NCBI GenBank assembly: GCA_044868105.1
Contig: JBIOWC010000196.1
Location: 198 to 64,197, forward strand
Direction of reading: 5' to 3'
Source of the DNA: Blastocatellia bacterium
GTDB taxonomy: Bacteria; Acidobacteriota; Blastocatellia; UBA7656
Length of the DNA: 64,000 nucleotides
Below the pieces are notes generated by a model, which worked only from the letters and a program-made list of their open reading frames with translations, was not told the origin of the DNA and did no database searches. Shown one piece after another: positions 2,330 to 58,289 of the stretch; positions within the stretch are counted from its first letter, which is position 1, and each line of letters opens with the position of its first letter. The position numbers were made by a program, and so were the translations under genes.

Positions 2330-2700
2330 GGGCGCAGGGGGCAAAGCTCGTGATGGAAAACCACCAGGCTCACGGTCCTGATTCCCAAAGACTGCGGGAA
2401 CCGTTAGGCTCGTAATGGAAAACCACCGGGCTCACCATCAGGGCTCAACTTCCCCGCTGATCGGGCGGAGGCGGCCGGTGAACGCGGATTTTTAAGAGTC
2501 AAGCATCTACCTTGATCGCAAGGGTCAAGCATCCGCGTTGATGGTGAGGGTTAAGCATCCGCGTTGATCGGCACCATCAGCCTGATCAGCGGGGAAGCCC
2601 CAAGGTGAACCCCCGACTCGCTGATTTTCCCTGAGCCCGCTCACCTTTACTCCCACCGCTCGCTAATTTTTCCTGAGCCCTCGCGGCCTCTTCAAAGAGC
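2330..2700. repeat. Repeat-dense non-coding region (several direct, tandem and inverted repeat families) downstream of the WD40-caspase gene
   Basis: Direct repeats GCTCGTGATGGAAAACCACCAGGCTCAC (2346-2373) and GCTCGTAATGGAAAACCACCGGGCTCAC (2408-2435). Three tandem ~23-bp units GTCAAGCATC(TA/CG)C(CT/GT)TGAT(C/G)G (2498-2570). Inverted pair TTCCCCGCTGATC / GATCAGCGGGGAA (2450-2462 / 2584-2596). Direct repeats CTCGCTGATTTTCCCTGAGCCCGCTCACC / CTCGCTAATTTTTCCTGAGCCCTCGCGGCC (2608-2688). Confidence 0.6.
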
Positions 2701-2781
2701 ACTCCGCCGAAGCGCAGCACCAGGGTTCTTGCGGCCACCCCTTATAACCAATCGCCATTCGCCATAGTCACGCGATTTAAC

Positions 2782-4791
2782 TTGAGCGTGGGTGACGTAT
2801 TGACTATGCTAGCTGCGCGATTTATGGCAAAGATTTCCTCGCGACTACGATTCTTGACTGAGATAAGCGAATGGTTATCCCGTAGCATCGCCAAACCATC
2901 AGCAGCAAAACCACGTCGTAAACAATGGCTCATCATCTGTGTCAGTATTTTTCTCATCGGGGTCGGTGTGCGCTTGTTGCACTGGCAAGACCTCACGGTT
3001 GAGCTTCAGCAGCAAGAAGAGATGATGCCCGGTCTGGCAAAACATTACAAACAAGAAGCCAAACAGATGCTCGACGAGGGCTACCTCCTTTATCCGGCAA
3101 GCCCGGTTGACCCGGGCGATGCGCGACTCATCTTGCATCCGCCGGGATATGCGTTTTTGATGGCCATCATTTTTCGGCTTTCCGGCGCAATTGATTCGCC
3201 GATCAGGCTGGCGCAAATCATCGGTGACTCACTTGCAGCGGTGTTGATTTTTTTCATTGCTGCAGAATTGTTTCGCCAAGCGATTGCCGTGCTTGCCGGA
3301 TTTCTGGTCGCCTTGTCGCCGCATTTTGCTCACTACTCGCTCTGGCTTTCACCCGATACCTTGCCGGTCTTACCGATATTGATTGCCGCATGGCTTATCA
3401 TTAAAGCGAGCCAGCGACCACGCCTCCCGACGGTCATTCTTGCCGGGGCTATGCTCGGATTATCCTGCTGGCTGCGCGCCAATGCCCTGTTGATTGCCCC
3501 GTTTTTTGCGGTCGCCGTTTTTTTTACCATTGAGCGCAGTAAACGCCTGCTCTATCCTGTCGCGCTGGTTGGCGCGATGGTCGTGGTGATTTCGCCAATC
3601 ACCATTCGCAATTGGATTCTCTATCATCACTTCATTCCAGTTTCGATAGCCGGAGGTGAAAACCTGGTGGTCGGTATTGCCGATGTTGATAAAGAAAAGC
3701 GTTTCGGGATGCCGGCATCGGATGATGAAGCTTCTGACAAAGATGCCGAGTGGCACAACCGCCCGGATTATGCGGTGAGCCTCTGGTCGCCCGATGGCAT
3801 TGAACGCGACCAGTATCGTTACCGGCGCGGGCTTGAAGTCATTCGCGCCAACCCCCGCTGGTTTTTAGGCGCGATGGCTAAACGCGCTATCTTTATGTTG
3901 CGCTATAACGATGCAATTCCTTCGACCTGGCCCTTCAATACGGCTAACGTGCCGTTGGTTGCTGCTGAACCCTCGGTCGGGCAAGCCCCCCTAAGCTTTG
4001 CGGACCAACAACCCACCTGGTCAGCCGATGCCAATCAATTACTGGCTGAAGGAGAACAACTGGCGAAAGCGGCTGAACTAGCCAGCGACGCAAGTGGGCT
4101 CGCGCTACGCGGTGACGGCTCGGCATTTGGAGATCAGTTTCAATCCACAAAGCTTGCGGTTGAACGGCACACCGATTACGCCATCACCTTTTCGGGAAAA
4201 GTCGTGCAGGGTGAAATGGGCATCAAAGTAACCGACGTGAACCGACGCATCACTCTCGATTCGATAATTTTTGCGCAAGACGAAAAAGTAAAGCAGAACG
4301 CTACAAATGGAGAGAGCGAGCCAGCCAAGCAAACGCGCACCCTGTTGTTTACCAGTGGCAACCGTTCGGAAGTGCGTCTGGTGATAAGCAACGATAGAGC
4401 CGATGCCAGGCATCCCGAAATTCGCATCGCAGAGGTTAAATTGTTCAATCTCGGGCCAACTCCCTATCGCTGGACGCGCTATCCGCGTTTGCTGGTTCGC
4501 GCCATTCAGAAAAATATTTTTCAGACGAAATTTTTATTGCCGTTGGTGATTGTCGGTGTGGCGTTGTTGATTTGGGCGCGGGCGCGAAAGTCATTGATTT
4601 TTTTACTCACCGTGCCAACTTACTATATGCTCATCCATTCAGCGTTAAGCACAGAGTATCGTTACATTCTCGCCATTCATTATTTCTTCTTTATCATCGC
4701 CAGCGTGACGCTGTGTTGCTTAAGCCTCGCCGTCAAACAAAGCGCAACCTATTCGCTGAACAAATTCAAAGCTGTCAAAAGCTCGTCCTGA
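2782..4791 (+). CDS. Polytopic membrane glycosyltransferase, family 39 (ArnT/PMT-like) architecture, with a long C-terminal soluble region and a terminal TM segment
   Basis: The 669-aa ORF has more than 10 predicted hydrophobic helices in its first ~300 aa. GT39-like N-terminal loop motifs are present (DEGYLLYPASP..., HPPGYAFLMAIIFRLSG). A hydrophilic ~250-aa domain follows, then a final hydrophobic stretch. Confidence 0.5.
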   Translation: MSVGDVLTMLAARFMAKISSRLRFLTEISEWLSRSIAKPSAAKPRRKQWLIICVSIFLIGVGVRLLHWQDLTVELQQQEEMMPGLAKHYKQEAKQMLDEGYLLYPASPVDPGDARLILHPPGYAFLMAIIFRLSGAIDSPIRLAQIIGDSLAAVLIFFIAAELFRQAIAVLAGFLVALSPHFAHYSLWLSPDTLPVLPILIAAWLIIKASQRPRLPTVILAGAMLGLSCWLRANALLIAPFFAVAVFFTIERSKRLLYPVALVGAMVVVISPITIRNWILYHHFIPVSIAGGENLVVGIADVDKEKRFGMPASDDEASDKDAEWHNRPDYAVSLWSPDGIERDQYRYRRGLEVIRANPRWFLGAMAKRAIFMLRYNDAIPSTWPFNTANVPLVAAEPSVGQAPLSFADQQPTWSADANQLLAEGEQLAKAAELASDASGLALRGDGSAFGDQFQSTKLAVERHTDYAITFSGKVVQGEMGIKVTDVNRRITLDSIIFAQDEKVKQNATNGESEPAKQTRTLLFTSGNRSEVRLVISNDRADARHPEIRIAEVKLFNLGPTPYRWTRYPRLLVRAIQKNIFQTKFLLPLVIVGVALLIWARARKSLIFLLTVPTYYMLIHSALSTEYRYILAIHYFFFIIASVTLCCLSLAVKQSATYSLNKFKAVKSSS

Positions 4792-9184: not shown

Positions 9185-9823
9185 ATGACCAGAGCAAATC
9201 GCATCATCGCTTTTTCTTTAGTTGCTGCCATTTTATTAACTGGCTTTGCAATCGGACGTTTCACGCAATCGGCCAGCACCAGCGCGGCCGATGAAACAAC
9301 CCCGGTCACGAGTACCGTACAACCCACGAATGAAACGACAACCTCTGAGGCGTCAACCCCTGCGGCGACAACCAAGGAACGCGATTTTTATTTAAGCGAT
9401 TTCAAGGTCGGATACACGGATGGCTATAACGCGGGCGTGTCAGGTCAAAACGCGGCGGTGCCGGAAACCTCGCGTCCGGGTTACAACGACGGCTACAAAG
9501 AAGGCTACACCGATTCCCTACAAGCGCAGGCTAAAACCGAAACGCCAGGGGTTACGGTTGCGTCGCAAGCCGGCACCCGAGAACGAGTGGTCTATCGCAC
9601 GGTTGACCGCCCGGTCTATCGCACCGTGTCGCGTCCGGTCTATGTCACGCCGCGTAAGCGAGGTTCCAAATTAAAAACCGCGCTGACGATTGCGGCGCCA
9701 GCGGCAATTGGCGCAGGTATCGGGGCTATATTTGGTGGTAAAAAAGGCGCCGGTATTGGGGCGCTGCTCGGCGGCGGCGGCGGCGCGATTTACCATTTAA
9801 GGAAGAATCGTTATCGCGATTAA
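9185..9823 (+). CDS. Secreted or membrane-anchored repetitive protein (Thr-rich linker, triple R-x-VYRTV-x-RPVY repeat, Gly-rich C-terminus)
   Basis: The ATG at 9185 is preceded by GGAGG. A signal/anchor helix follows (IIAFSLVAAILLTGFAIG). The linker is T/S-rich. The repeats are RVVYRTVDRPVYRTVSRPVYV. The tail is GAGIGAIFGGKKGAGIGALLGGGGG. An intrinsic terminator follows at 9857-9882. Confidence 0.55.
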   Translation: MTRANRIIAFSLVAAILLTGFAIGRFTQSASTSAADETTPVTSTVQPTNETTTSEASTPAATTKERDFYLSDFKVGYTDGYNAGVSGQNAAVPETSRPGYNDGYKEGYTDSLQAQAKTETPGVTVASQAGTRERVVYRTVDRPVYRTVSRPVYVTPRKRGSKLKTALTIAAPAAIGAGIGAIFGGKKGAGIGALLGGGGGAIYHLRKNRYRD

Positions 9824-18780: not shown

Positions 18781-18885
18781 TGTATAGTGGTCGTGGTGAT
18801 TTAAAGCAAATTGCTCCACGTTAAAGATGTGCTAAATCGCAAGGAAAATTTTCAGGCCTTGTGCAAATTTAGCACAAGGCTTTTT
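18781..18885 (+). ncRNA. Candidate small RNA or leader/attenuator transcript upstream of the peroxiredoxin gene
   Basis: Putative promoter TTGACC (18746-18751) with a 17-18 nt spacer and CTATGCT. About 100 nt downstream is a strong intrinsic terminator, GCCTTGTGC-AAATTTA-GCACAAGGC + TTTTT (18856-18885). It is nested in a larger GTGCTAAAT/ATTTAGCAC inverted repeat and lies about 115 bp upstream of the prx start. Confidence 0.3.
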
Positions 18886-29728: not shown

Positions 29729-29918
29729 CAGGAATTAGGAGTTAGGATGTAGGAATTAGGATATAGGAGTTGGGGAGGTAGAGGATTTAATGTTTCACCC
29801 GCCTGTTGACTTGAAACAGGCTCCAGTAGCCAGTTACGAGACCGTAGCAGTTCTACTTCATCCCTTCCGTATGCTGTATCCTAATTCCCATTTCCTAATT
29901 CCTATATCCTACATCCTA
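29729..29918. repeat. Palindromic intergenic element, copy B (same family as 13308-13447)
   Basis: Left arm AATTAGG-AGTTAGG-ATGTAGG-AATTAGG-ATATAGG-AGTTGGG... Right arm CCTAATT-CCCATTT-CCTAATT-CCTATAT-CCTACAT-CCTAG. The core AACAGGCTCCAGTAGCCAGTTAC...TAG...TTCTACTTCATCC is about 75% identical to copy A. Confidence 0.7.
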
Positions 29919-30857
29919 GCTAGCGGTTTCAAGTCGGCGACGTTGAAATTCGTCAAAGGTCACGGCCAGCACGATGACGGCGCCGATGATGACCTGTTGC
30001 GTAAACGACGAAATGCCGAGCAGATTCGCGCCGTTTGCCAGTACGCCCATAATCAACGAGCCGATAATTGTACCAATAACGGTTCCTTGCCCGCCGGCAA
30101 GTGAGCCGCCCCCGATGACGACGGCGGCGATAACGCGCAGTTCATAACCCTCGCCCGCGGTTGGTTGCCCGGTTACGAGCCGCGCCGATTCAATAGCTCC
30201 TGCCAAACCGGCAAGCGCCCCGAGAATGACGTAGAACATAATTTGATAACGCGAAACGCGAACCCCTGCGTAACGCGCCGCTTCGACATTACTGCCGATG
30301 GCATAACAATAACGACCCGCCTGGGTGCGGGTAAGCAAAAAATGGATGACCAGCGCGACCACCAGAACAATCAGTAGCGGCACAGGAAACACGCCAAACA
30401 GGTTGCCTTCGGCGAGATAACCGAAACTGTTTGGCAAACCGACAACCGCCGTGCCATCGGTGATGAGTAAAGCGACGCCGCGATAAATTCCCATCGCCCC
30501 CAGCGTGACAATAAACGGCGGGATTTTGAGCATCGCCACCGCCGTTCCGTTAATGATTCCAAACATCGCGCCCGCCGCTATACAGACCAGGATTCCCAAA
30601 AGCACCGGAGCGCCAGCGACCATCGAGAGCGCGCCAAGCACAGCGGTCAACGCCATCATCGAACCGACCGACAGGTCTATGCCGCCTGCGACCATCACCA
30701 TCGTCATGCCGATTGCCATGGTGGTAATCACTGCCGTCTGCCGCGCGACCCCGGCAAGGTTACCGGCGGAAAGAAATTTTGGCTCAAGCACGGCAATCAG
30801 AGTGCAGAGCGCCAGCAAGCTGACAAAAGGTAGAAAGCGTTTAATCCAATCCGACAT
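29916..30857 (-). CDS. Sugar ABC transporter permease (RbsC/branched monosaccharide type)
   Basis: 313 aa with about 10 TM helices. The conserved loop IPPFIVTLGAMGIYRGVALLITDG is typical of the ribose/xylose permease family. Confidence 0.85.
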   Translation of the reverse strand: MSDWIKRFLPFVSLLALCTLIAVLEPKFLSAGNLAGVARQTAVITTMAIGMTMVMVAGGIDLSVGSMMALTAVLGALSMVAGAPVLLGILVCIAAGAMFGIINGTAVAMLKIPPFIVTLGAMGIYRGVALLITDGTAVVGLPNSFGYLAEGNLFGVFPVPLLIVLVVALVIHFLLTRTQAGRYCYAIGSNVEAARYAGVRVSRYQIMFYVILGALAGLAGAIESARLVTGQPTAGEGYELRVIAAVVIGGGSLAGGQGTVIGTIIGSLIMGVLANGANLLGISSFTQQVIIGAVIVLAVTFDEFQRRRLETAS

Positions 30858-31022
30858 GGTTTCCTCTTGAGGGTTATTCAGCCTCGTTAGGCGAACGCCC
30901 GCTCATCCGTTTCATCCATTTCATCCGAGAACAAATTTTCAATCTTCGCTTGTACGTCGTTAGCTTTTAGGGCGAACACTGAAGGGCGGTGATTTCCCTG
31001 GCGCTTATTCATTTTTAGCAAC

Positions 31023-32561
31023 TTAAACTTCAGATGAAAACTCAGGCTCTGCATGCTTGACCTCTTCAACCGCCGCATAGCGCAACACCTCTTCCTGAGT
31101 AGTCTTGCGCGCTTCAAGTTCTGCAACTAAACGTCCGCGTCGCATGACGAGAATGCGGTTTGCCATGCCAAGCAACTCCGGCAAGTCCGATGAAACCATC
31201 ACCACTGCGGCGCCCGCTTCGGTCAATTGATTGATGGCGCGATAAATTTCGGCGCGCGCCGCCACATCAACGCCGCGTGTCGGTTCATCAAGCAGAAAGA
31301 CTTGCGAACCGGCAAATAGCCAACGCCCCAATAAAACTTTCTGTTGATTGCCGCCGCTCAGTCGCGCCACAGTCTTCGCCGGGTCAGGCGGGCGAATATG
31401 CAGTTTATCAATATACTGGCGAGCCGTTTCCTGCTCGCGTTTGTGACTGAGCCGCCAACCCTTAATCAGCGCGCGAACATTGGCAAGGGTGAGATTGTGC
31501 GCCAGCGACAGGTTAAGACACAGACCTGTATGCTTGCGGTCTTCCGTCAGTAAACCTAACCCCTGGGAGACGGAGCGCGCCGGTTGCCCCATAGAAAGCG
31601 GCGACCCATTTAAACGGATTTCGCCGCCGTCGGCCAGTCGCGCGCCGAAAATTGTTTCGACCAATTCCGTGCGTCCGGCTCCGGCGAGTCCCGCAATACC
31701 CACCACTTCACCAGCGCGCACGTTAAAGGTCACCTCGGCAAATTTTCCGGCCAGCGTCAGCCGCTCAACGCTCAATCGCAGTTCACCGACTTGAGTTTGG
31801 CGGGGCGGAAATATCTCTTTGAGTTCACGACCGGCCATGTAACGGATCACTTCATCTATTGAAAGTTCGCCCCAGGCGCCTGAATAGACCGCTTGCCCGT
31901 CGCGCAAGATGGTCACCCGGTCGGCAATCGCATCGAGTTCTTCAAGGCGATGCGAGATATAGATGATGGCGAGCCCGCGCGATTTGAGGTCACCAATCAA
32001 GCGAAACAGTTCTTCTACTTCGCGGGTGGTTAGCGAAGAGGTTGGTTCATCCATCACCAGGATGCGCCGGGCTTCCAAAGTGGCGCGCATAATTTCGACC
32101 ACTTGACGGTGCGCGGCACTCAACCGTCCGACGATGGCTTGCGGGTCAAGATTGAAGCCGTATTCCGAGAGCAAGCGGGCCGCCTGGTCATTCAATTTGC
32201 GCCGATTGATAACAGCGAGCGGCGTGAAACTGAGGGGTTCACGCCCAAGAAAAATATTTTCCGCGACCGTGAGATGCGGCGCGAGCGCGAGTTCCTGATA
32301 AATCATGGCGATACCTTCAGCGAGCGCCGCTGCCGGGTGAGCCAGTCGCGTGGGACGGCCTTCAATTAAAATCTCACCGCCATCGGGCTGATAAACGCCC
32401 GCGAGAATTTTCATCAAGGTGGATTTGCCCGCGCCGTTTTCACCGACGAGCGCATGAACTTCGCCCGCCCCGGCCGACAGATTGACCTCAGTGAGAACGG
32501 TATTTCCGGCAAATGATTTGGTAATGCGGCGCATTTCCAGCGCCGGTGTAATTGAAGTCAT
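31023..32561 (-). CDS. Sugar ABC transporter ATP-binding protein with duplicated ATPase domains (RbsA/MglA/XylG type)
   Basis: Two Walker A sites (GENGAGKST; GLAGAGRTE), the LSGGNQQK signature and Walker B LLDEPT. 512 aa. Confidence 0.9.
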
Positions 32562-32597
32562 GGATGATCTTTAAAAATCAAAAAATATTTTCTAAAA

Positions 32598-32782
32598 GCC
32601 CCGAAGGGGCGAGATTCAATAGCTTAGGGCAACGCCCGGAGAAATGCAGGTCTCGGTTCTCAAGCCCTGAAAGGGCGACATTAGCTACCCCGATTTATTT
32701 CGCCCTTTCAGGGCTTTTCGTTTTCATGCCCGACATTTCCCGGCGCGATACGCCGGGCTATTGAATTGCGCCCTTTCAGGGC
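32598..32782. repeat. Cluster of REP-like 13-nt palindromic hairpins (GCCCTGAAAGGGC and variants) in both orientations
   Basis: GCCCCGAAGGGGC (32598-32610), GCCCTGAAAGGGC (32664-32676), GCCCTTTCAGGGC (32702-32714), GCCCTTTCAGGGC (32770-32782), plus CCCGGCG-CGATA-CGCCGGG (32739-32757). All lie in the 308-bp spacer between the SUKH-like gene and the ABC ATPase start. Confidence 0.65.
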
Positions 32783-32869
32783 TTCGCTCAACTTTATAAA
32801 ACCGAACAAGGCTACTTACTTTCGGTGATTGAACATTCGCAATGCAGCGACCGGATTCATCATATGCGA

Positions 32870-33532
32870 TTAAATATTCTGTTCGACCCACAAAAAAAAG
32901 GGATCGTTAGAATTAGCATCATCCATTTTTGAAGGATACTTCACGATTTCATCAGCCAATTGGGGAATAGTAACGGAAAACGTATTTCTTACCCAATCCT
33001 GATAGGCGATGTTTGGATATACGAAGGTTTCATCAGCCGAATCCACATTGGGTGGTTTGTTGAAATTTTCGCTCCAACAAATCTCATCGTAACCGATGGC
33101 TAAGAGTCGCAGAAAATCAATAGGATCATCTGCCAATACACACACTAAGTCAGAGCCAGATCCCGACCCAAGATGCACTATTCTCTGTTTGTCATCGTTG
33201 TCTAACCAAAAAGCTGCCCTTGATCCATCGGCGCCAGTTTTTGCAAAAACACACAAGCGATTTAGTACTTCCGGTTTTTCATGACCAAACCAGTGCTTTA
33301 AGTTGCTATTGCCTTCTGCAAGGAACTCGATATTAGTTCCTACTGGCCTTTCGTATTCAGCCCATTCTGTTTTGAGCTTATTCTCCAAGAAGAGGTACCC
33401 GATTCGTCGGCCATCATTTGTAATGATAAACAGACCGTTACTTTCGATCCACGAAAACAGTAGTTCAAGAGGTTTCGGAATATACATATTTGGAAGCAGG
33501 GTACTAGCGAGTTCATCATATAGTGTTGCCAT
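32870..33532 (-). CDS. SMI1/KNR4 (SUKH-1)-like protein, a putative orphan immunity protein; a low-GC insertion inside the ABC transporter operon
   Basis: 220 aa. The N-terminal LPNMYIPKPLELLFSWIESNGLF resembles the SUKH 'LP..Y..fl...NGG' signature. GC is about 41-42%, against about 58-60% for the flanking transporter genes. Confidence 0.45.
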   Translation of the reverse strand: MATLYDELASTLLPNMYIPKPLELLFSWIESNGLFIITNDGRRIGYLFLENKLKTEWAEYERPVGTNIEFLAEGNSNLKHWFGHEKPEVLNRLCVFAKTGADGSRAAFWLDNDDKQRIVHLGSGSGSDLVCVLADDPIDFLRLLAIGYDEICWSENFNKPPNVDSADETFVYPNIAYQDWVRNTFSVTIPQLADEIVKYPSKMDDANSNDPFFLWVEQNI

Positions 33533-33575
33533 CGGTTAAATCCCGCTTGCTGTACATTAGATTTGACGAAGTTTT

Positions 33576-34529
33576 TTACGGCGCTTTAAGCAGCTTCTGC
33601 ATGTCGTCCGTATTGATATTTTCTTTGGTCAGTAGCTTCACGCCGGTATCGAGCACGCGCGGCGGCGTCTGTCCGTTGAGTTTAGCAACCAGACTTTTCA
33701 CGCCTTCGTAGCCCATCTTAAAAGGGTCTTGCAAAACCAGCGAATCAATCGCGCCGCCGTTTAAATCGTCAATTAAATTGGGACTGGAATCGAAACCGAC
33801 CAGCACAACTTTACCCGCGAGTCCTTTTTGTTTGATGGCCTGCACAGCGCCCACCGTCGAAGATTCATTGGACGCAAAGAAGCCATTTAAATCAGCGTTC
33901 GCCGTCAAAATATCGGTCGCGCGGTCTAAGGATTTCGCGCGGTCGGCATCGCCATATTGAAAAGCGACAATTTGAATGCCGGGATATTTCTGTTTGATGG
34001 TTTCCTGAAAACCTTGCTCGCGCTGGTCTGTGGAAACCGACCCGGCCTTGACGCCGAGTATCGCGACTTTCCCTTTGCCGCCCAGTTTTTCAGCCAGGCG
34101 TTCAGCCGCGACCACGCCGCCTTGATGATTATCCGTCGCCACATAGTTCAGATAATTTTCGGTGCTGATGCCGGAATCGAATATGGTTACGGGGATGCCT
34201 TCTTTGCTGGCGCGTTCAACGACCGGAACCAGCGCTTCGCCGTGTGACGGAGCGAGCACGATGCCATCAACCCGCCTATTTATAGCGTCTTCGACAATAT
34301 TGATTTGCCCAGTGTAATCGGTCTCTTGAGCCGGGCCTTTCCACATCACTTCGACATTTAATTCTTTGCCAGCCGCTTCCGCGCCGGCGTGAACCGTTTG
34401 CCAGAAGAAATGCGACACCCCTTTGGGGATGACGGCAATGACTCTTTTGCCGCCGCCTTCGCGACGACAGGCCGGGGCAAACAGGCAAACGAGAATGAGC
34501 ATTAACAGCATAAGTTTTAATCTATTCAT
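33576..34529 (-). CDS. Sugar ABC transporter periplasmic substrate-binding protein (RbsB / LacI-type PBP family)
   Basis: Signal peptide plus a type-I periplasmic binding fold ([46 protein letters not shown]). 317 aa. Confidence 0.85.
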
Positions 34530-49933: not shown

Positions 49934-52357
49934 TCATCGGAATAAAATTTGATACGGCTTTCCGGCCCTCAGCTTCAACCGCAGCGCGCCATCCGTCAGC
50001 TTAGATACCGGAAGACTTTTGCCGTCTTCTAAGACGCGTTCAATCTGTTGACCAGGTGGTGGGCGGAGTTTCTGCTCAAGGCTTACCTGAGGGCGCAACC
50101 TGGCAGTCGTCGCTTTGCCCGCTGCCCACTGCAAATCAACTTCAATTGCCCCGCGCGCCCGCAGTCCGTTGATTGACCCTGCGGCCCAGGCCGTCGGTAG
50201 CGCCGGAAGCAATTGCAGTTCTCCCGCCTGGCTTTGCACGAGCATCTCAGCCATACCGGCGGCGCCGCCGAAATTCCCGTCAATCTGAAAGGGCGGGTGA
50301 TTATCCAGCAGATTCGCAAGCGTTGATTTGGCGAGCAGCGCCACCAGGTTTTCATGCGCTAAATTCCCTTCTTCCAGTCGCGCCCAGAAATTAATTATCC
50401 AGGCCCGGCTCCACCCCGTGTGCCCGCTTCCGGCTTGCAGGCGGCGTTCCAGCGATAGGCGCGCGGCGTGTGCCAGTTCCGGCGTGCCGCGCAAGGTAAT
50501 TTGATTGCCCGGGTGCAGCGCGAACAGGTGCGAGATGTGGCGATGTCCGGGGTCGGCTTCGTCATAATCTTCAAGCCATTCCTGCAACTGCCCGTGTTTG
50601 CCGATGCGCAGCGGCGCCAGGCGCTCTAAAGCCGTGGTCGCGCGCGCCCTGAACGCTTCATCAATACGGAGCAGGCGGCTCGCTTCGACGACGCGGCTCA
50701 AGAGCGCCTGCGCAATCTCCGTATCCATCGTCGGTCCCATACACAATTTGACCGCCGCGCCATCCGGCGCCAGATAGCGATTTTCAGGCGAAAGCGACGG
50801 ACCGGTTATTAAATGTCCCTGGCTATCGGTGACCAGGTAATCGAGCAAAAATTCGGCGGCCTCTTTCATTACCGGGTAAGCCCGGCGCGCCAGAAATTCG
50901 CGGTTGCGCGTGAAATCATAATGCTCCCATAAATGTAAACTGAGCCAGGCCCCGCCCATCGGCCAAAGCCCTGCGTGAACGCCATCAATCGGCACGGCGT
51001 GCCCCCACAAATCCGTGTTGTGATGGATGACGAAGCCGCGCGCCCGGTAAAGATTTTTAGCAACCCGTCGCCCATCTTCGCGGGCCTGGTCGAGCAGATC
51101 GAATAACGGCGTGTGGAGCTCTGAAAGGTTGCCAACTTCGGCAAGCCAGTAGTTCATCTCGGTGTTGATATTGATGGTGTACTTGCTGTCCCAAGAGGGA
51201 CTGAGTTGCGCGTTCCACTTGCCTTGCAGATTTGCCGCCATGGCCCCCGGACGACTGCTTGAGATGAGCAGGTAACGCGCGAACTGAAAATATAGCGTTT
51301 CAAGCCCCAGGTCGCTTGCGCCCTCGGCGACCCGGCGCAATCGTTCGTCGGTCGGAAGCTCCAGGTTGGGCGCCGCAAGATGAAAGGTAAGGCGACGAAA
51401 GAGACGCTGATAATCGGCAACATGAGCGGCGCGCAGTTGGGCGTAAGGCTTGCGCGCGGCGGCAAGGTAGGCGTCACATTTTTCGGCCGGCCGCGCTGAG
51501 CGAAAATTGGTCGCCGCCGCAAAGATGAGCGTCGCCGCATCGGCGGTTTCGACTTTCACTTCGCTGCCCGTAACAGAGAGTCGCCCCCCTTCGGGAATCA
51601 CTTTGACTACACCTTGAAATTTGACGCCGACCTTGCGCTCAAGCTCGTGGCGTTCACCGCGCGCAATCGCTTCACCGCGAATTACCAAGCGGTCAGGCTT
51701 TGCCGTATCGGTCTGACTATCTTGTTCGCGGGTGAGCGTGGTCGAAAAACTGAGGCCGCCCGGCCGGTCACAGGTCAGGCGCATGACGATGACTTGATCA
51801 ACCGCCGAGGCAAAAACTTCGCGGCTAAATTGCGCTTCTTTGCAGCGGTAGGTTAGGCGTGCGATGCCGGTGTCGAGGTCTAACTGGCGAAGATAATCGC
51901 GCGCCTCTTCCTGACCCTGGAAACGCAGGAGCCAATCGCCGAGCGGTTGATACGGCGGCAGGCGCTTGGGAATCGCAATGAGAGTTCGCTCAGCGAGCGC
52001 CTCGGCCTCTTGCGGTTTGCCCGCAAAGAGCAGCCGCCGCACTTCGGCAAGCTGAGCTGCGCCTTCGGGGTTCAGGCGGTCACGTTTTTCTCCCGCCCAG
52101 ATGGTCTCTTCGTTCAATTGCAGGCGCTCGTTTTGAAGGCCCCCGAAGACCATCGCCGCCAGTCGCCCGTTGCCAATCGGCAGCGCCTCATTCCAGTTGG
52201 CGGCCGGCTGGCGATACCACAATCGCAGGGGTTGAGGAGTGGCCGTCAAGGCCGTAGTCGCGGTTGTCAATAGATGCCAAAGAAAAACGCCGGTAAATAA
52301 ACGCGGCAGAAAATTTTGGTTAAGGAGCGTCATCAAGGGCAGCGATTTTTTTCTCAT
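49934..52357 (-). CDS. Glycoside hydrolase family 95 (alpha-L-fucosidase / alpha-1,2-fucosidase-like)
   Basis: The N-terminal signature [30 protein letters not shown] is characteristic of GH95. 807 aa with a signal peptide. Confidence 0.8.
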
Positions 52358-52624
52358 GAAGGCGTCTCCCTGGGATTAGTCGAGGAGTAGAATTCGCCGC
52401 TATGCGGCGCTTGAATTTAGCCTGGTCTTTCAAGGCTGGGAACGCTGCATCGTTCAACAGGTTTCGTTGCTGACCCGACGCCACAATCTATCAATCAACG
52501 CGCAACCGGGCCTTAAAAGACCCAGCTCACTTCGTTTTGCGGCTCGTTGTATGTTGGTCCGCCGGCGGTTGATGCAAAAGCTTTGCTCCTTCCAGTCCTT
52601 TCAACTTAACGGCCGCTTGATGAT

Positions 52625-57035: not shown

Positions 57036-58289
57036 TCACGCTTTCCCCTTGGTCTTTGGAAAGAGCAAATGGCTGCGCTCGGCGGCCTTCATTTCCGGCA
57101 GTTTCGCCAGTAAGGATTGATAGGGGTTATCGCTATATTTACTTGCGGCGCGCCGCAGCAGCGGGAATAACATCTGCGGCGGCCATTCGCCGAGTTGTTG
57201 ATACGGCCATTTCAGTTCGCCCATAGCAAACGGGATAAGAAAATCGAGCGCCCGTCGAATGCCGCGCCCATCGCGGGTTTGAAACTGCCACAAGTCCATA
57301 CCGACGCTTTCACCCAGGGCGGCGAGCTGCATCAAGCCATCAAGATTGCCGACACTGTAGCTCCAGGCTTTGGTGCGCGCCAGTTCCAGCGGTTGCCGAC
57401 CGTCGGGCTCAACTTGCAGGGCGATGCGTTTCGCTTTGGCGGTTTGCAAAATCCGCGTCGCAAGGTCGCGCTTGCCGAGAAAGAGCGCAAAGGAGGCCGT
57501 CTGTAGGTCATAATAAGTTCCGTGATTATTCTTGGCGGCGGCTTCGTCGCGTCCGTTTTTGCTCTCCAGCATCCACTCAAGGAATTTGGCGAACCAATGT
57601 TCAACGCCCTGTTGGTCGGCGCTTGTCCAGTTTTTAGAACCGGCAAGTAAGCCGATGGCGTCAACGACGCGCGTCAGGCCGCGCGTTTCAATGAGGCCAA
57701 TGCCGCGCCCGGTGTTGATGCCGGGGATGCCTTGCGCATATTGCAGATTCGCATTCATGCGGGTGGCCCGGTCGAGAAACCAGGCGCGCAGCAAGACCGC
57801 CGCTTTCGCCGCGTATGCTTCATCGCCTTTGAAGTAGTAAGCGAGCGCCAGGGTTTCGACTGCGGTCACCATTTTGTCGAGGCTTTGATGGTCGGAAATT
57901 TTGTTGATTTCAGGATTGCGTTCGCCGTCGCGCCGTAGGTAAGGCCGCCCGTCGGGAGTTTGCGGATTGCGCCAGAAATAGGGCGCTTGACTCATATAAT
58001 CGTGTTTATCGCCGCTCGGCGGGGTGGCGGCTTTCGTAACCACAGAGAAGCGTTCTGCGGCGAGCGCGTTTTGCGCTTCGCTTTCAAGTTTCGCAAGCGC
58101 CGGCGCCAGGCTTTTATCGCCGGCGCGCGCGCTCTCTCTTACCGCTTCAAGATGCTTGGCGTTGAGCAGAAAAATTCGCAATTGATGTGCTCGCACGACC
58201 GAAGCCGTGGGGGTGCGTTGAGAGGGGGCTGAAAGCGCCACCAGCAGAATCAGTAGACCGGTCTGTAACAGACATCCGATGGTTTTCAT
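57036..58289 (-). CDS. Alginate-lyase-family (PF05426-like) protein; paralog of 34775-36097
   Basis: KNNHGTYY and RAWFLDRATRMNANLQYAQGIPG align with the paralog's KNNHATCW / RAWFVDPHTRMNPHLKYAQAIQG. Signal peptide from the ATG at 58289 (MKTIGCLLQTGLLILLVALSA). Confidence 0.5.
   Translation of the reverse strand: MKTIGCLLQTGLLILLVALSAPSQRTPTASVVRAHQLRIFLLNAKHLEAVRESARAGDKSLAPALAKLESEAQNALAAERFSVVTKAATPPSGDKHDYMSQAPYFWRNPQTPDGRPYLRRDGERNPEINKISDHQSLDKMVTAVETLALAYYFKGDEAYAAKAAVLLRAWFLDRATRMNANLQYAQGIPGINTGRGIGLIETRGLTRVVDAIGLLAGSKNWTSADQQGVEHWFAKFLEWMLESKNGRDEAAAKNNHGTYYDLQTASFALFLGKRDLATRILQTAKAKRIALQVEPDGRQPLELARTKAWSYSVGNLDGLMQLAALGESVGMDLWQFQTRDGRGIRRALDFLIPFAMGELKWPYQQLGEWPPQMLFPLLRRAASKYSDNPYQSLLAKLPEMKAAERSHLLFPKTKGKA

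Follow-up and report, generated by a model that had tools for sequence, protein, structure and literature searches.

A gene-less palindromic element in a Blastocatellia sugar-transporter operon and its probable kinship with a Y1-transposase repeat family

Introduction

What kind of element is the cluster of short hairpins that stands in front of an ATP-binding cassette (ABC) transporter ATPase gene in a Blastocatellia bacterium? The cluster occupies positions 32596-32784 of a 64,000-nucleotide stretch of contig JBIOWC010000196.1 (assembly GCA_044868105.1), and it is this whole stretch that we call the window. A first-pass annotation, made from the letters alone, had likened the cluster to the repetitive extragenic palindromes (REPs) and bacterial interspersed mosaic elements (BIMEs) of enterobacteria. 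We identify its building block as Acido-Lenti-1, Rfam family RF01687. Our favoured reading, which we consider probable, is that the window copy is a gene-less, non-autonomous palindromic element of 189 bp, belonging to a repeat family of Y1 transposases that resembles REPs and REPINs, and lodged in a sugar-transporter operon.

In Weinberg et al. 2010 (PMC2864571), Acido-Lenti-1 is rated on covariation as a probable RNA without a cis-regulatory role; it was placed in Acidobacteria and Lentisphaerae and noted as 'sometimes near group II introns'. Quentin et al. 2018 described a 'subclass 1.2' of Y1 proteins that are like those of the insertion sequence (IS) IS200 and reportedly lack flanking structures and IS properties. 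An association between the two seems undescribed in the literature that we searched.

Results

The hairpins that had been reported in the spacer are real and could all be located. Exact copies of GCCCTGAAAGGGC lie at 32664-32676 (+), 32702-32714 (-) and 32770-32782 (-), the variant GCCCCGAAGGGGC at 32598-32610, and a CCCGGCG..CGCCGGG hairpin at 32740-32758; a sixth, degenerate hairpin (GGGC-AAC-GCCC, 32627-32637) had been overlooked. The 13-mer hairpins follow one another in the order + + - -, forming a nested palindrome with inverted pairs. Their orientation is therefore two-and-two instead of alternating as in BIMEs, as had been proposed. When up to two mismatches are allowed, the 13-mer has seven matches in the window compared with 2.27 ± 1.35 after shuffling (0 of 100 shuffles reached seven), and four of the seven fall within the 185 nt of the cluster. 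By our own arithmetic the exact 13-mer would be expected about 0.002 times per 64 kb, both strands counted.

The building block of the cluster is a 46-nt unit of two hairpins, consisting of hairpin 1, a GCTATTGAATnn linker and hairpin 2. Two full units (A and B) and two half units (C and D) are joined head-to-head into one long imperfect palindrome, with the plus-strand order full B (-), half D (-), half C (+), full A (+). Full unit A (32739-32783, +) contains hairpin 1 at 32740-32758, the linker GCTATTGAATTG and hairpin 2 at 32770-32782; full unit B (32597-32641, -) has its hairpin 2 at 32598-32610 and a decayed hairpin 1, of which just the GGGC/GCCC pairs are left. Half unit D (32663-32688, -) forms the head of the left arm and half unit C (32690-32715, +) that of the right, each comprising the 3' part of the linker and hairpin 2 (32664-32676 and 32702-32714, respectively). 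From the outside inwards, each arm begins with a full unit, in which hairpin 2 is followed by the linker, the invariant GCTA and hairpin 1, and continues over some 20-24 nt of spacer to a half unit. A repeat finder returned the same nesting, pairing 32596-32646 with 32734-32784 (51 nt, 75% complementary) and, further in, 32662-32681 with 32697-32716 (20 nt, 95%). The outer arms are terminal inverted repeats of the kind expected of a classical miniature inverted-repeat transposable element (MITE). As in REPs and REPINs, the inverted doublet can fold into one long hairpin: 32596-32784 does so both as RNA of the operon-sense strand (-105.2 kcal/mol, z = -7.98) and as DNA (-56.3 kcal/mol, z = -7.4), with 0 of 200 shuffles reaching either value.

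The identity of the unit comes from Rfam. At gathering level the sole match in the window was RF01687 Acido-Lenti-1, to unit A (32739-32783, +; 41.5 bits against a gathering score of 37). A permissive scan with the same model added four sub-threshold matches: unit B (32597-32638, -; 23.6 bits), unit C (32690-32715, +; 18.8 bits, to the 3' half of the model), unit D (32663-32713, -; 17.8 bits) and a solo, diverged unit E (52395-52440, -; 20.6 bits). R1, a covariance model of the unit that we built in this analysis, scored A at 47.2 bits (E = 1.3e-10), B at 29.1 bits (E = 6.5e-06), E at 26.3 bits (E-value 3.3e-05), D at 21.0 bits (match 32663-32713) and C at 20.4 bits (model positions 24-45), and over the 64 kb it found these same five units and nothing more below E = 0.4. 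Units A, B and E align over model positions 1-46, C and D over the 3' half only. This part of the genome therefore carries five units at two loci, all of them intergenic. Unit E lies in the spacer upstream of an 807-aa gene (49934-52357), 38 nt before its start.

The window unit shares the 46-nt architecture of RF01687 in each of its parts: the first hairpin has 8 bp, the 12-nt linker begins with CUA, the second hairpin has 5 bp and a UUC-type loop, and the unit closes with CU. Its GCTATTGAAT linker is a feature that the window has in common with Acidobacteriota (Blastocatellia-like). Clustering of units is also visible in the Weinberg seed alignment, where copies from Lentisphaera araneosa lie 74-240 nt apart in the same or opposite orientation. 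The first-pass annotation had read the locus at too fine a grain. Its REP-like interpretation was right in kind, in that the palindromic element recurs outside genes and departs in consensus from enterobacterial REPs, and wrong in detail; the RF01687 identity went unrecognised.

We then considered how far the unit extends beyond this locus. A pattern scan for GCTAWT-N(0-6)-CGCCCYTTCRGGGCT (linker plus hairpin 2), with one genome per species, returned at least 120 stretches from at least eight phyla, with about 15 matches estimated to be due to chance. The gap is exactly 6 in 107 of the 135 listed matches, and nearly all of these 107 carry a covarying (compensating) hairpin directly 5' of GCTA. 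The hosts among the listed matches include Acidobacteriota, Bacteroidota, Planctomycetota, Verrucomicrobiota, Desulfobacterota, Myxococcota, Nitrospirota, Zixibacteria, Hydrogenedentota, Abditibacteriota and a few Proteobacteria, and some genomes among them are multi-copy (Blastocatellia H3_16 with at least six stretches, MFD04935 with at least three). Units avoid coding sequence, 37% lying wholly inside open frames of at least 150 aa compared with 84% of random positions; the intergenic bias that the first-pass annotation had proposed to check is borne out across genomes.

The same check had asked whether the motif occurs only here, and the answer depends on what is counted. Within the 64-kb window the exact 13-mer is confined to the cluster, and copies A and C, like B and D, resemble each other, as would be expected if the cluster were a product of chance or of a purely local tandem or inverted duplication with no family behind it. 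The unit, however, recurs with covarying stems in the stretches above, and this together with the match to a curated family and the shuffles has already refuted such an origin, to which we assign next to no probability.

Composites built in the same way and likewise lacking a gene were seen elsewhere: one Blastocatellia genome has them at three loci, and a second Blastocatellia, a member of the Bacteroidales and one of the Isosphaeraceae have them too. The window composite is collinear with those of all three groups. At L028, L048 and L072 (Blastocatellia MFD04935) the composite is bracketed by an extra inverted repeat, AATTCGACATAATRATCGAAGTAAA; given this repeat, the mobile unit of that genome may be longer than the composite.

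The unit is connected to a transposase by its position beside Y1 genes. A tblastn search of the at least 120 listed stretches found IS200-like Y1 genes adjoining units at L099 and L126. At L099 a 148-aa Y1 gene (2662-3108) is preceded by a minus-oriented arm consisting of hairpin 2, linker, AATAGC, hairpin 1, spacer and half unit, and is followed, right behind its stop codon, by a plus-oriented arm of half unit, spacer, hairpin 1, GCTATT linker and hairpin 2. With this protein (P0241) as the query, a similar gene was found in 14 of 120 listed stretches, representing seven phyla. Each of the 14 genes adjoins a unit in the correct orientation on one side or more, and nine do so on both sides.

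We extended this comparison to an independent set of 80 loci from metagenomes, for which protein similarity (48-75% identity) was the sole criterion of choice, and scanned them with R1. A minus-oriented unit was present within 250 nt upstream of the Y1 gene in 56 of 71 assessable loci, a plus-oriented unit within 250 nt downstream in 66 of 75, and both flanks in 47 of 66, while units in the wrong orientation were seen in 14 of 71 (upstream) and 13 of 75 (downstream). The median gap between unit and gene was 58 nt upstream and 54 nt downstream, and 165 of 200 R1 matches lay within 250 nt of the gene. On the Y1 loci the Rfam models at gathering score gave 42 RF01687 matches in 20 loci and no other family. 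Some Y1 genes have longer arrays next to them: four tandem full units with a 72-nt period at L057 (820-1081, a Zixibacteria metagenome-assembled genome, MAG) and five with a 78-nt period at L096 (7246-7611, Blastocatellia AA13). The Y1 gene of L126 (1-364, -; a Fimbriiglobus MAG) is frameshifted, either as a pseudogene or through an assembly error.

The arms of the window element are collinear with the Y1-adjacent arms of L044, L096, L099 and L126, sharing the sequence of half unit, 20-25-nt spacer, hairpin 1, GCTATT linker and hairpin 2. Half unit D aligns with the gene-proximal half units of these Y1-flanking arms, and the 24 nt between half unit C and unit A equal the half-to-full gap in L044. 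No gene lies between the two arms in the window. Given that the arms align with Y1 flanks and enclose no gene, the window element is best read as the gene-less counterpart of the Y1-bearing form, to which it would stand as a REPIN does to its REP-associated tyrosine transposase (RAYT), or a MITE to its IS.

We next evaluated whether the unit is conserved as a DNA or as an RNA structure, using two sets of sequences. Set A3 holds 88 in-register 46-mers, of which 47 are Weinberg seeds and 41 come from the scanned genomes. In A3 96.6% of cells are paired, a percentage inflated by the preselection of the 41 sequences for at least seven of the eight hairpin 1 pairs; 12 of 13 pairs are changed on both sides, compensatory cells number 273 compared with 72.8 ± 6.2 in shuffled alignments, and slid controls are 25-54% paired. 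Set A5 comprises 136 units from the metagenomic loci picked by protein alone, which are free of this preselection but model-fitted. Here 98.1% of cells are paired, 11 of 13 pairs are changed on both sides, compensatory cells number 280 compared with 64.8 ± 6.1 (0 of 500 shuffles reach this) and slid controls are 28-46% paired. A MAFFT alignment of 62 units (A2), in which hairpin 1 was misregistered in units with 3-nt loops, was excluded from the pair counts.

G-T pairs make up 0.36% of cells in A5 and 1.05% in A3, and on the strand annotated by Rfam A-C mismatches exceed them three- to fourfold (31 vs 12 in A3, 23 vs 6 in A5). The scarcity of G-T together with the excess of A-C indicates that DNA hairpins fit these data better than an RNA selected on the annotated strand. 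Any tolerance of wobble pairs would then lie on the complementary strand. The A-C excess further hints that it is the complement of the Rfam strand which folds in function, its hairpin preceded by a 5'-TAGC foot. The invariant letters of the unit are G20, C21, T22 and A23, the GCTA on the 3' side of hairpin 1, which reads TAGC on the complement. In nine loci (L031, L047, L069, L086, L095, L096, L106, L145, L171) insertions of about 8-20 nt in the loop of hairpin 1 lengthen its stem, the stem base and GCTA remaining fixed.

These statistics bear on the standing annotation, under which the units would be genes for a small structured RNA (sRNA) present in several copies per cluster. RF01687 is typed by Rfam as 'Gene; sRNA', function unknown, in two phyla; unit A matches it at gathering level, the 2010 study rated it a probable RNA, and covariation is strong in both helices. 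An RNA gene, however, accords poorly with so few G-U pairs, outnumbered by A-C at 23:6 and 31:12, with both orientations and truncated half units in a single cluster, and with inverted copies flanking an HUH transposase gene. A promoter scan gave nothing above shuffles, no promoter-like site being found, and the U-run after hairpin 2 is not conserved. The half units, the palindromic composites, the inverted Y1 flanks and the range of at least eight phyla are all additions to the Rfam description. We therefore regard an sRNA gene as unlikely.

In the enzyme that accompanies the family, which has at least 6,967 homologues, Pfam recognises Y1_Tnp at 73 bits; the motifs H.H and YI..Q..HH are invariant, and FEEEFLAF is conserved near the C-terminal end. 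Its tyrosine motif, YI.SQ..HH, has the signature Y---Q--HH and differs from the Y...NP of RAYTs. On NCBIfam models it scores 50.7 and 54.9 bits for IS200 (NF033573, cut-off 55), just short of the cut-off, and 18 and 31 bits for REP_Tyr_transpos (RAYT; NF047646, cut-off 80), which places it outside class 2 TnpA-REP/RAYT. Judged by sequence, it corresponds to subclass 1.2 as characterised by Quentin et al. 2018, an assignment made on the published motif signature and C-terminal conservation and not on the authors' own profile.

Other partner enzymes and repeat families were considered and set aside. The class 3 TnpA-Y1 and TIRYT genes of Acidobacteria and Planctomycetes (Quentin 2018; Di Nocera 2013) resemble the family in that these Y1 genes, too, have repeated secondary structures on their flanks and belong to the same phyla. 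The published class 3 hairpins, CCGAGCCGCGACCGTAAGGGAGCGGA, are unrelated in sequence to the unit, and at three loci with homologues of the acidobacterial TIRYT (aba3477 type) no RF01687 or R1 unit lies near the gene. The GTAG and CGTC REP families of Di Nocera 2013 do not include Acido-Lenti-1 and are unlike it in geometry and tags, the CGTC stems having 8-9 bp and 4-5-nt loops.

Several observations weigh against reading the window copy as a mobile, gene-less member of this family, in addition to the preselection within A3 and the basis of the subclass assignment already mentioned. Units B, C and D fall below the Rfam threshold. No Y1 gene was found by tblastn in the 64-kb window or in its relative L207 (described below), the window having also been queried with ten RAYT and TIRYT sequences, P0241 and the L062 protein. 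Neither a repeat search nor inspection by eye revealed a direct repeat bracketing 32596-32784 as the target-site duplication of a classical MITE would, nor did the insertions share any target sequence. The ATPase-permease spacer, filled in L207 and empty in the window, cannot be aligned between the two, and no transposition event with exact ends was seen. Finally, units B, C, D and E are decayed, and the window copy may be an immobile fossil.

We next considered the genomic context of the element. The spacer that holds it (32562-32869) separates two minus-strand genes, and the minus-strand order is sugar-binding protein, 220-aa gene, element, ABC ATPase and permease. The first gene of this transporter set encodes a ribose-type sugar periplasmic binding protein (33576-34529, -; Pfam Peripla_BP_4, E = 1.8e-70), whose cluster mates are named ribose transport substrate-binding protein. 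The ATPase gene directly downstream of the element (31023-32561, -) has two Pfam ABC_tran domains (E = 2.3e-53), and the permease gene after it (29916-30857, -) matches BPD_transp_2. The accessory gene upstream of the element (32870-33532, -) encodes the 220-aa protein, which has 750 homologues; some of these, at 66-71% identity, are named SMI1/KNR4 by NCBI (Blastocatellia, cyanobacteria, Vibrio, Pseudomonas). The element was thus correctly placed by the first-pass annotation between an SMI1/KNR4-like gene and the ATPase start. Its 'SUKH-like' label finds support in these names and none in domain models, as the protein has no Pfam match even at E <= 5 and no NCBIfam match.

L207, a JGI contig reached via the cluster of the binding protein, has the same gene order, with coding genes 80-87% identical to those of the window at the DNA level. 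It carries a composite at the same site before the ATPase gene, the hairpins nearly unchanged and the surrounding spacer diverged, and hairpin 1 of its arm A shows a compensatory double change from C-G to T-A. A second composite (9244-9416) occupies its ATPase-permease spacer; the corresponding window spacer, 30858-31022, has no unit. The two relatives also differ in their accessory gene, L207 having an unrelated, CxxC-rich open reading frame (ORF) of 275 aa, with no Pfam or NCBIfam match, between binding protein and element.

This difference speaks to the suggestion that the hairpins mark, as a scar or an attachment site, where a horizontally acquired SMI1/KNR4 gene was integrated. The neighbour gene does differ between the relatives, and in the slot that holds it (window 32789-33572, L207 6590-7441) homology is back within about 4 nt of the outer end of the element. 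The element is present with either neighbour gene, however, the same composite occurs at many other loci without such genes, there is no integrase nearby, and a 77%-identical SMI1/KNR4-like homologue at L001 has no unit in its vicinity. An integration remnant, as the first-pass annotation had suggested, therefore appears very unlikely. The L001 homologue (493-891), the closest to the window protein, lies in another neighbourhood, beside a Y2_Tnp fragment and without an Acido-Lenti-1 unit.

A further alternative, compatible with a mobile origin, is that co-option has turned the element into a cis-acting part of the operon, one that sets the ratio of binding protein to ATPase, as a protector of mRNA 3' ends, an RNase III site or a partial terminator. 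In E. coli, such cis-acting roles have been shown for REPs and BIMEs in malEFG and hisJQMP. The site between cistrons of a co-directional transporter operon would suit such a role, as would the great stability of the mRNA-sense hairpin (-105 kcal/mol, z = -7.98), and L207 has kept the composite at this site, with a compensatory change, despite the divergence of its coding sequence and spacer, and carries another copy where the next two cistrons meet. On the other hand, the family is found in unrelated contexts in many phyla. A terminator scan found no site on the operon strand and a lone plus-strand site at 32702-32714 (in total 2, against 1.2 in shuffled sequence), and the L207 ortholog lacks the U-tract that follows hairpin 2 in unit B; the terminator role proposed earlier is not upheld by these results. 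We consider co-option possible, though less likely than not by some distance.

Discussion

These data allow us to propose a mechanism for the palindromic Y1-associated element that we favour. IS608 TnpA and E. coli TnpA-REP act through a Y1 dimer that recognises a hairpin and its foot, cuts and rejoins (PMC6006769, PMC3733652). By analogy with these enzymes, the hairpins of the element would fold in single-stranded DNA at the replication fork, and a Y1 enzyme encoded elsewhere in the genome would bind hairpin 1 with its GCTA/TAGC foot and cut and rejoin the strand, thereby moving or copying the element. As a side effect, the operon mRNA would gain a very stable hairpin that separates the binding-protein side from the ATPase gene and may tune their relative expression. 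Given its position, stability and conservation, an effect of this kind on the host is plausible.

Among known systems, REPs and REPINs with their RAYTs are similar in general plan, being short, multi-copy extragenic palindromes whose inverted doublets form a long hairpin. A REPtron, like Acido-Lenti-1, further combines a Y1/HUH gene that lies between inverted copies with a conserved tetranucleotide beside the hairpin. The tetranucleotides differ, however: REPs and REPINs have GTAG at the 5' end of the palindrome, and Acido-Lenti-1 has GCTA on the 3' side of hairpin 1. Moreover, its unit consists of two hairpins and a conserved linker, and its enzyme is of the IS200-like Y---Q--HH type. The likeness to REP and RAYT drawn in the first-pass annotation therefore holds for a Y1/HUH gene with inverted flanking copies and fails for the tag and for the enzyme, at 18 bits where the RAYT model demands 80.

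With IS200/IS605 elements and PATEs the family has in common a Y1_Tnp enzyme closest to IS200 TnpA, sub-terminal hairpins that are the presumed recognition sites, and miniature copies without a gene. IS200/IS605 elements are not known to have terminal inverted repeats, and the hairpins at their two ends lie on one strand. In Acido-Lenti-1, by contrast, the flanks are inverted, (-) upstream and (+) downstream. In E. coli BIMEs, too, palindromic units are grouped between the cistrons of transporter operons; unlike BIMEs, the window cluster has neither Y and Z unit types nor strict alternation (its units run - - + +), and the host phyla differ. RF01687 itself is an RNA according to Rfam, and our pair statistics favour DNA over RNA.

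The window locus is an ordinary copy of a widespread repeat. What is likely new is that the presumed sRNA turns out to be the repeat on the flanks of an orphan IS200-like Y1 subclass, with the window element as its gene-less palindromic form. Two orphans would thereby be joined, Acido-Lenti-1, an sRNA in Rfam since 2010 with two phyla, and the subclass 1.2 Y1 proteins of 2018. If this link is true, annotation pipelines should drop sRNA-gene calls for these units, and the REP/RAYT paradigm, drawn mostly from Proteobacteria, gains a structurally distinct counterpart in Acidobacteriota, Bacteroidota, Planctomycetota and others. The 46-nt unit and the 148-aa protein would also provide a substrate-enzyme pair for examining how HUH enzymes read hairpins and how repeats become fixed between operon cistrons.

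A broader proposal is more speculative, and taken as a whole we would give it a rather low chance of being correct. Acido-Lenti-1 might be no sRNA but the single-stranded DNA recognition repeat of the orphan subclass 1.2 Y1/HUH proteins, the two forming a third REP-RAYT-like system, with a two-hairpin unit and a GCTA/TAGC foot, that spans at least eight phyla. In composites retained within operons, the outer ends might serve both as expression-tuning hairpins and as hot spots for the exchange of accessory genes, such as the SMI1/KNR4 gene of the window and the zinc-ribbon-like ORF of L207.

Some minor features of the window were noted in passing. The ATPase-permease spacer (30858-31022) contains three tandem GGATGAAAY 9-mers. 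Two further Rfam matches, both sub-threshold and probably due to chance, are a SAM_alpha riboswitch at 18783-18855 (+; 23 vs 36 bits) and CRISPR-DR16 at 57685-57730 (-; 20.6 vs 35 bits).

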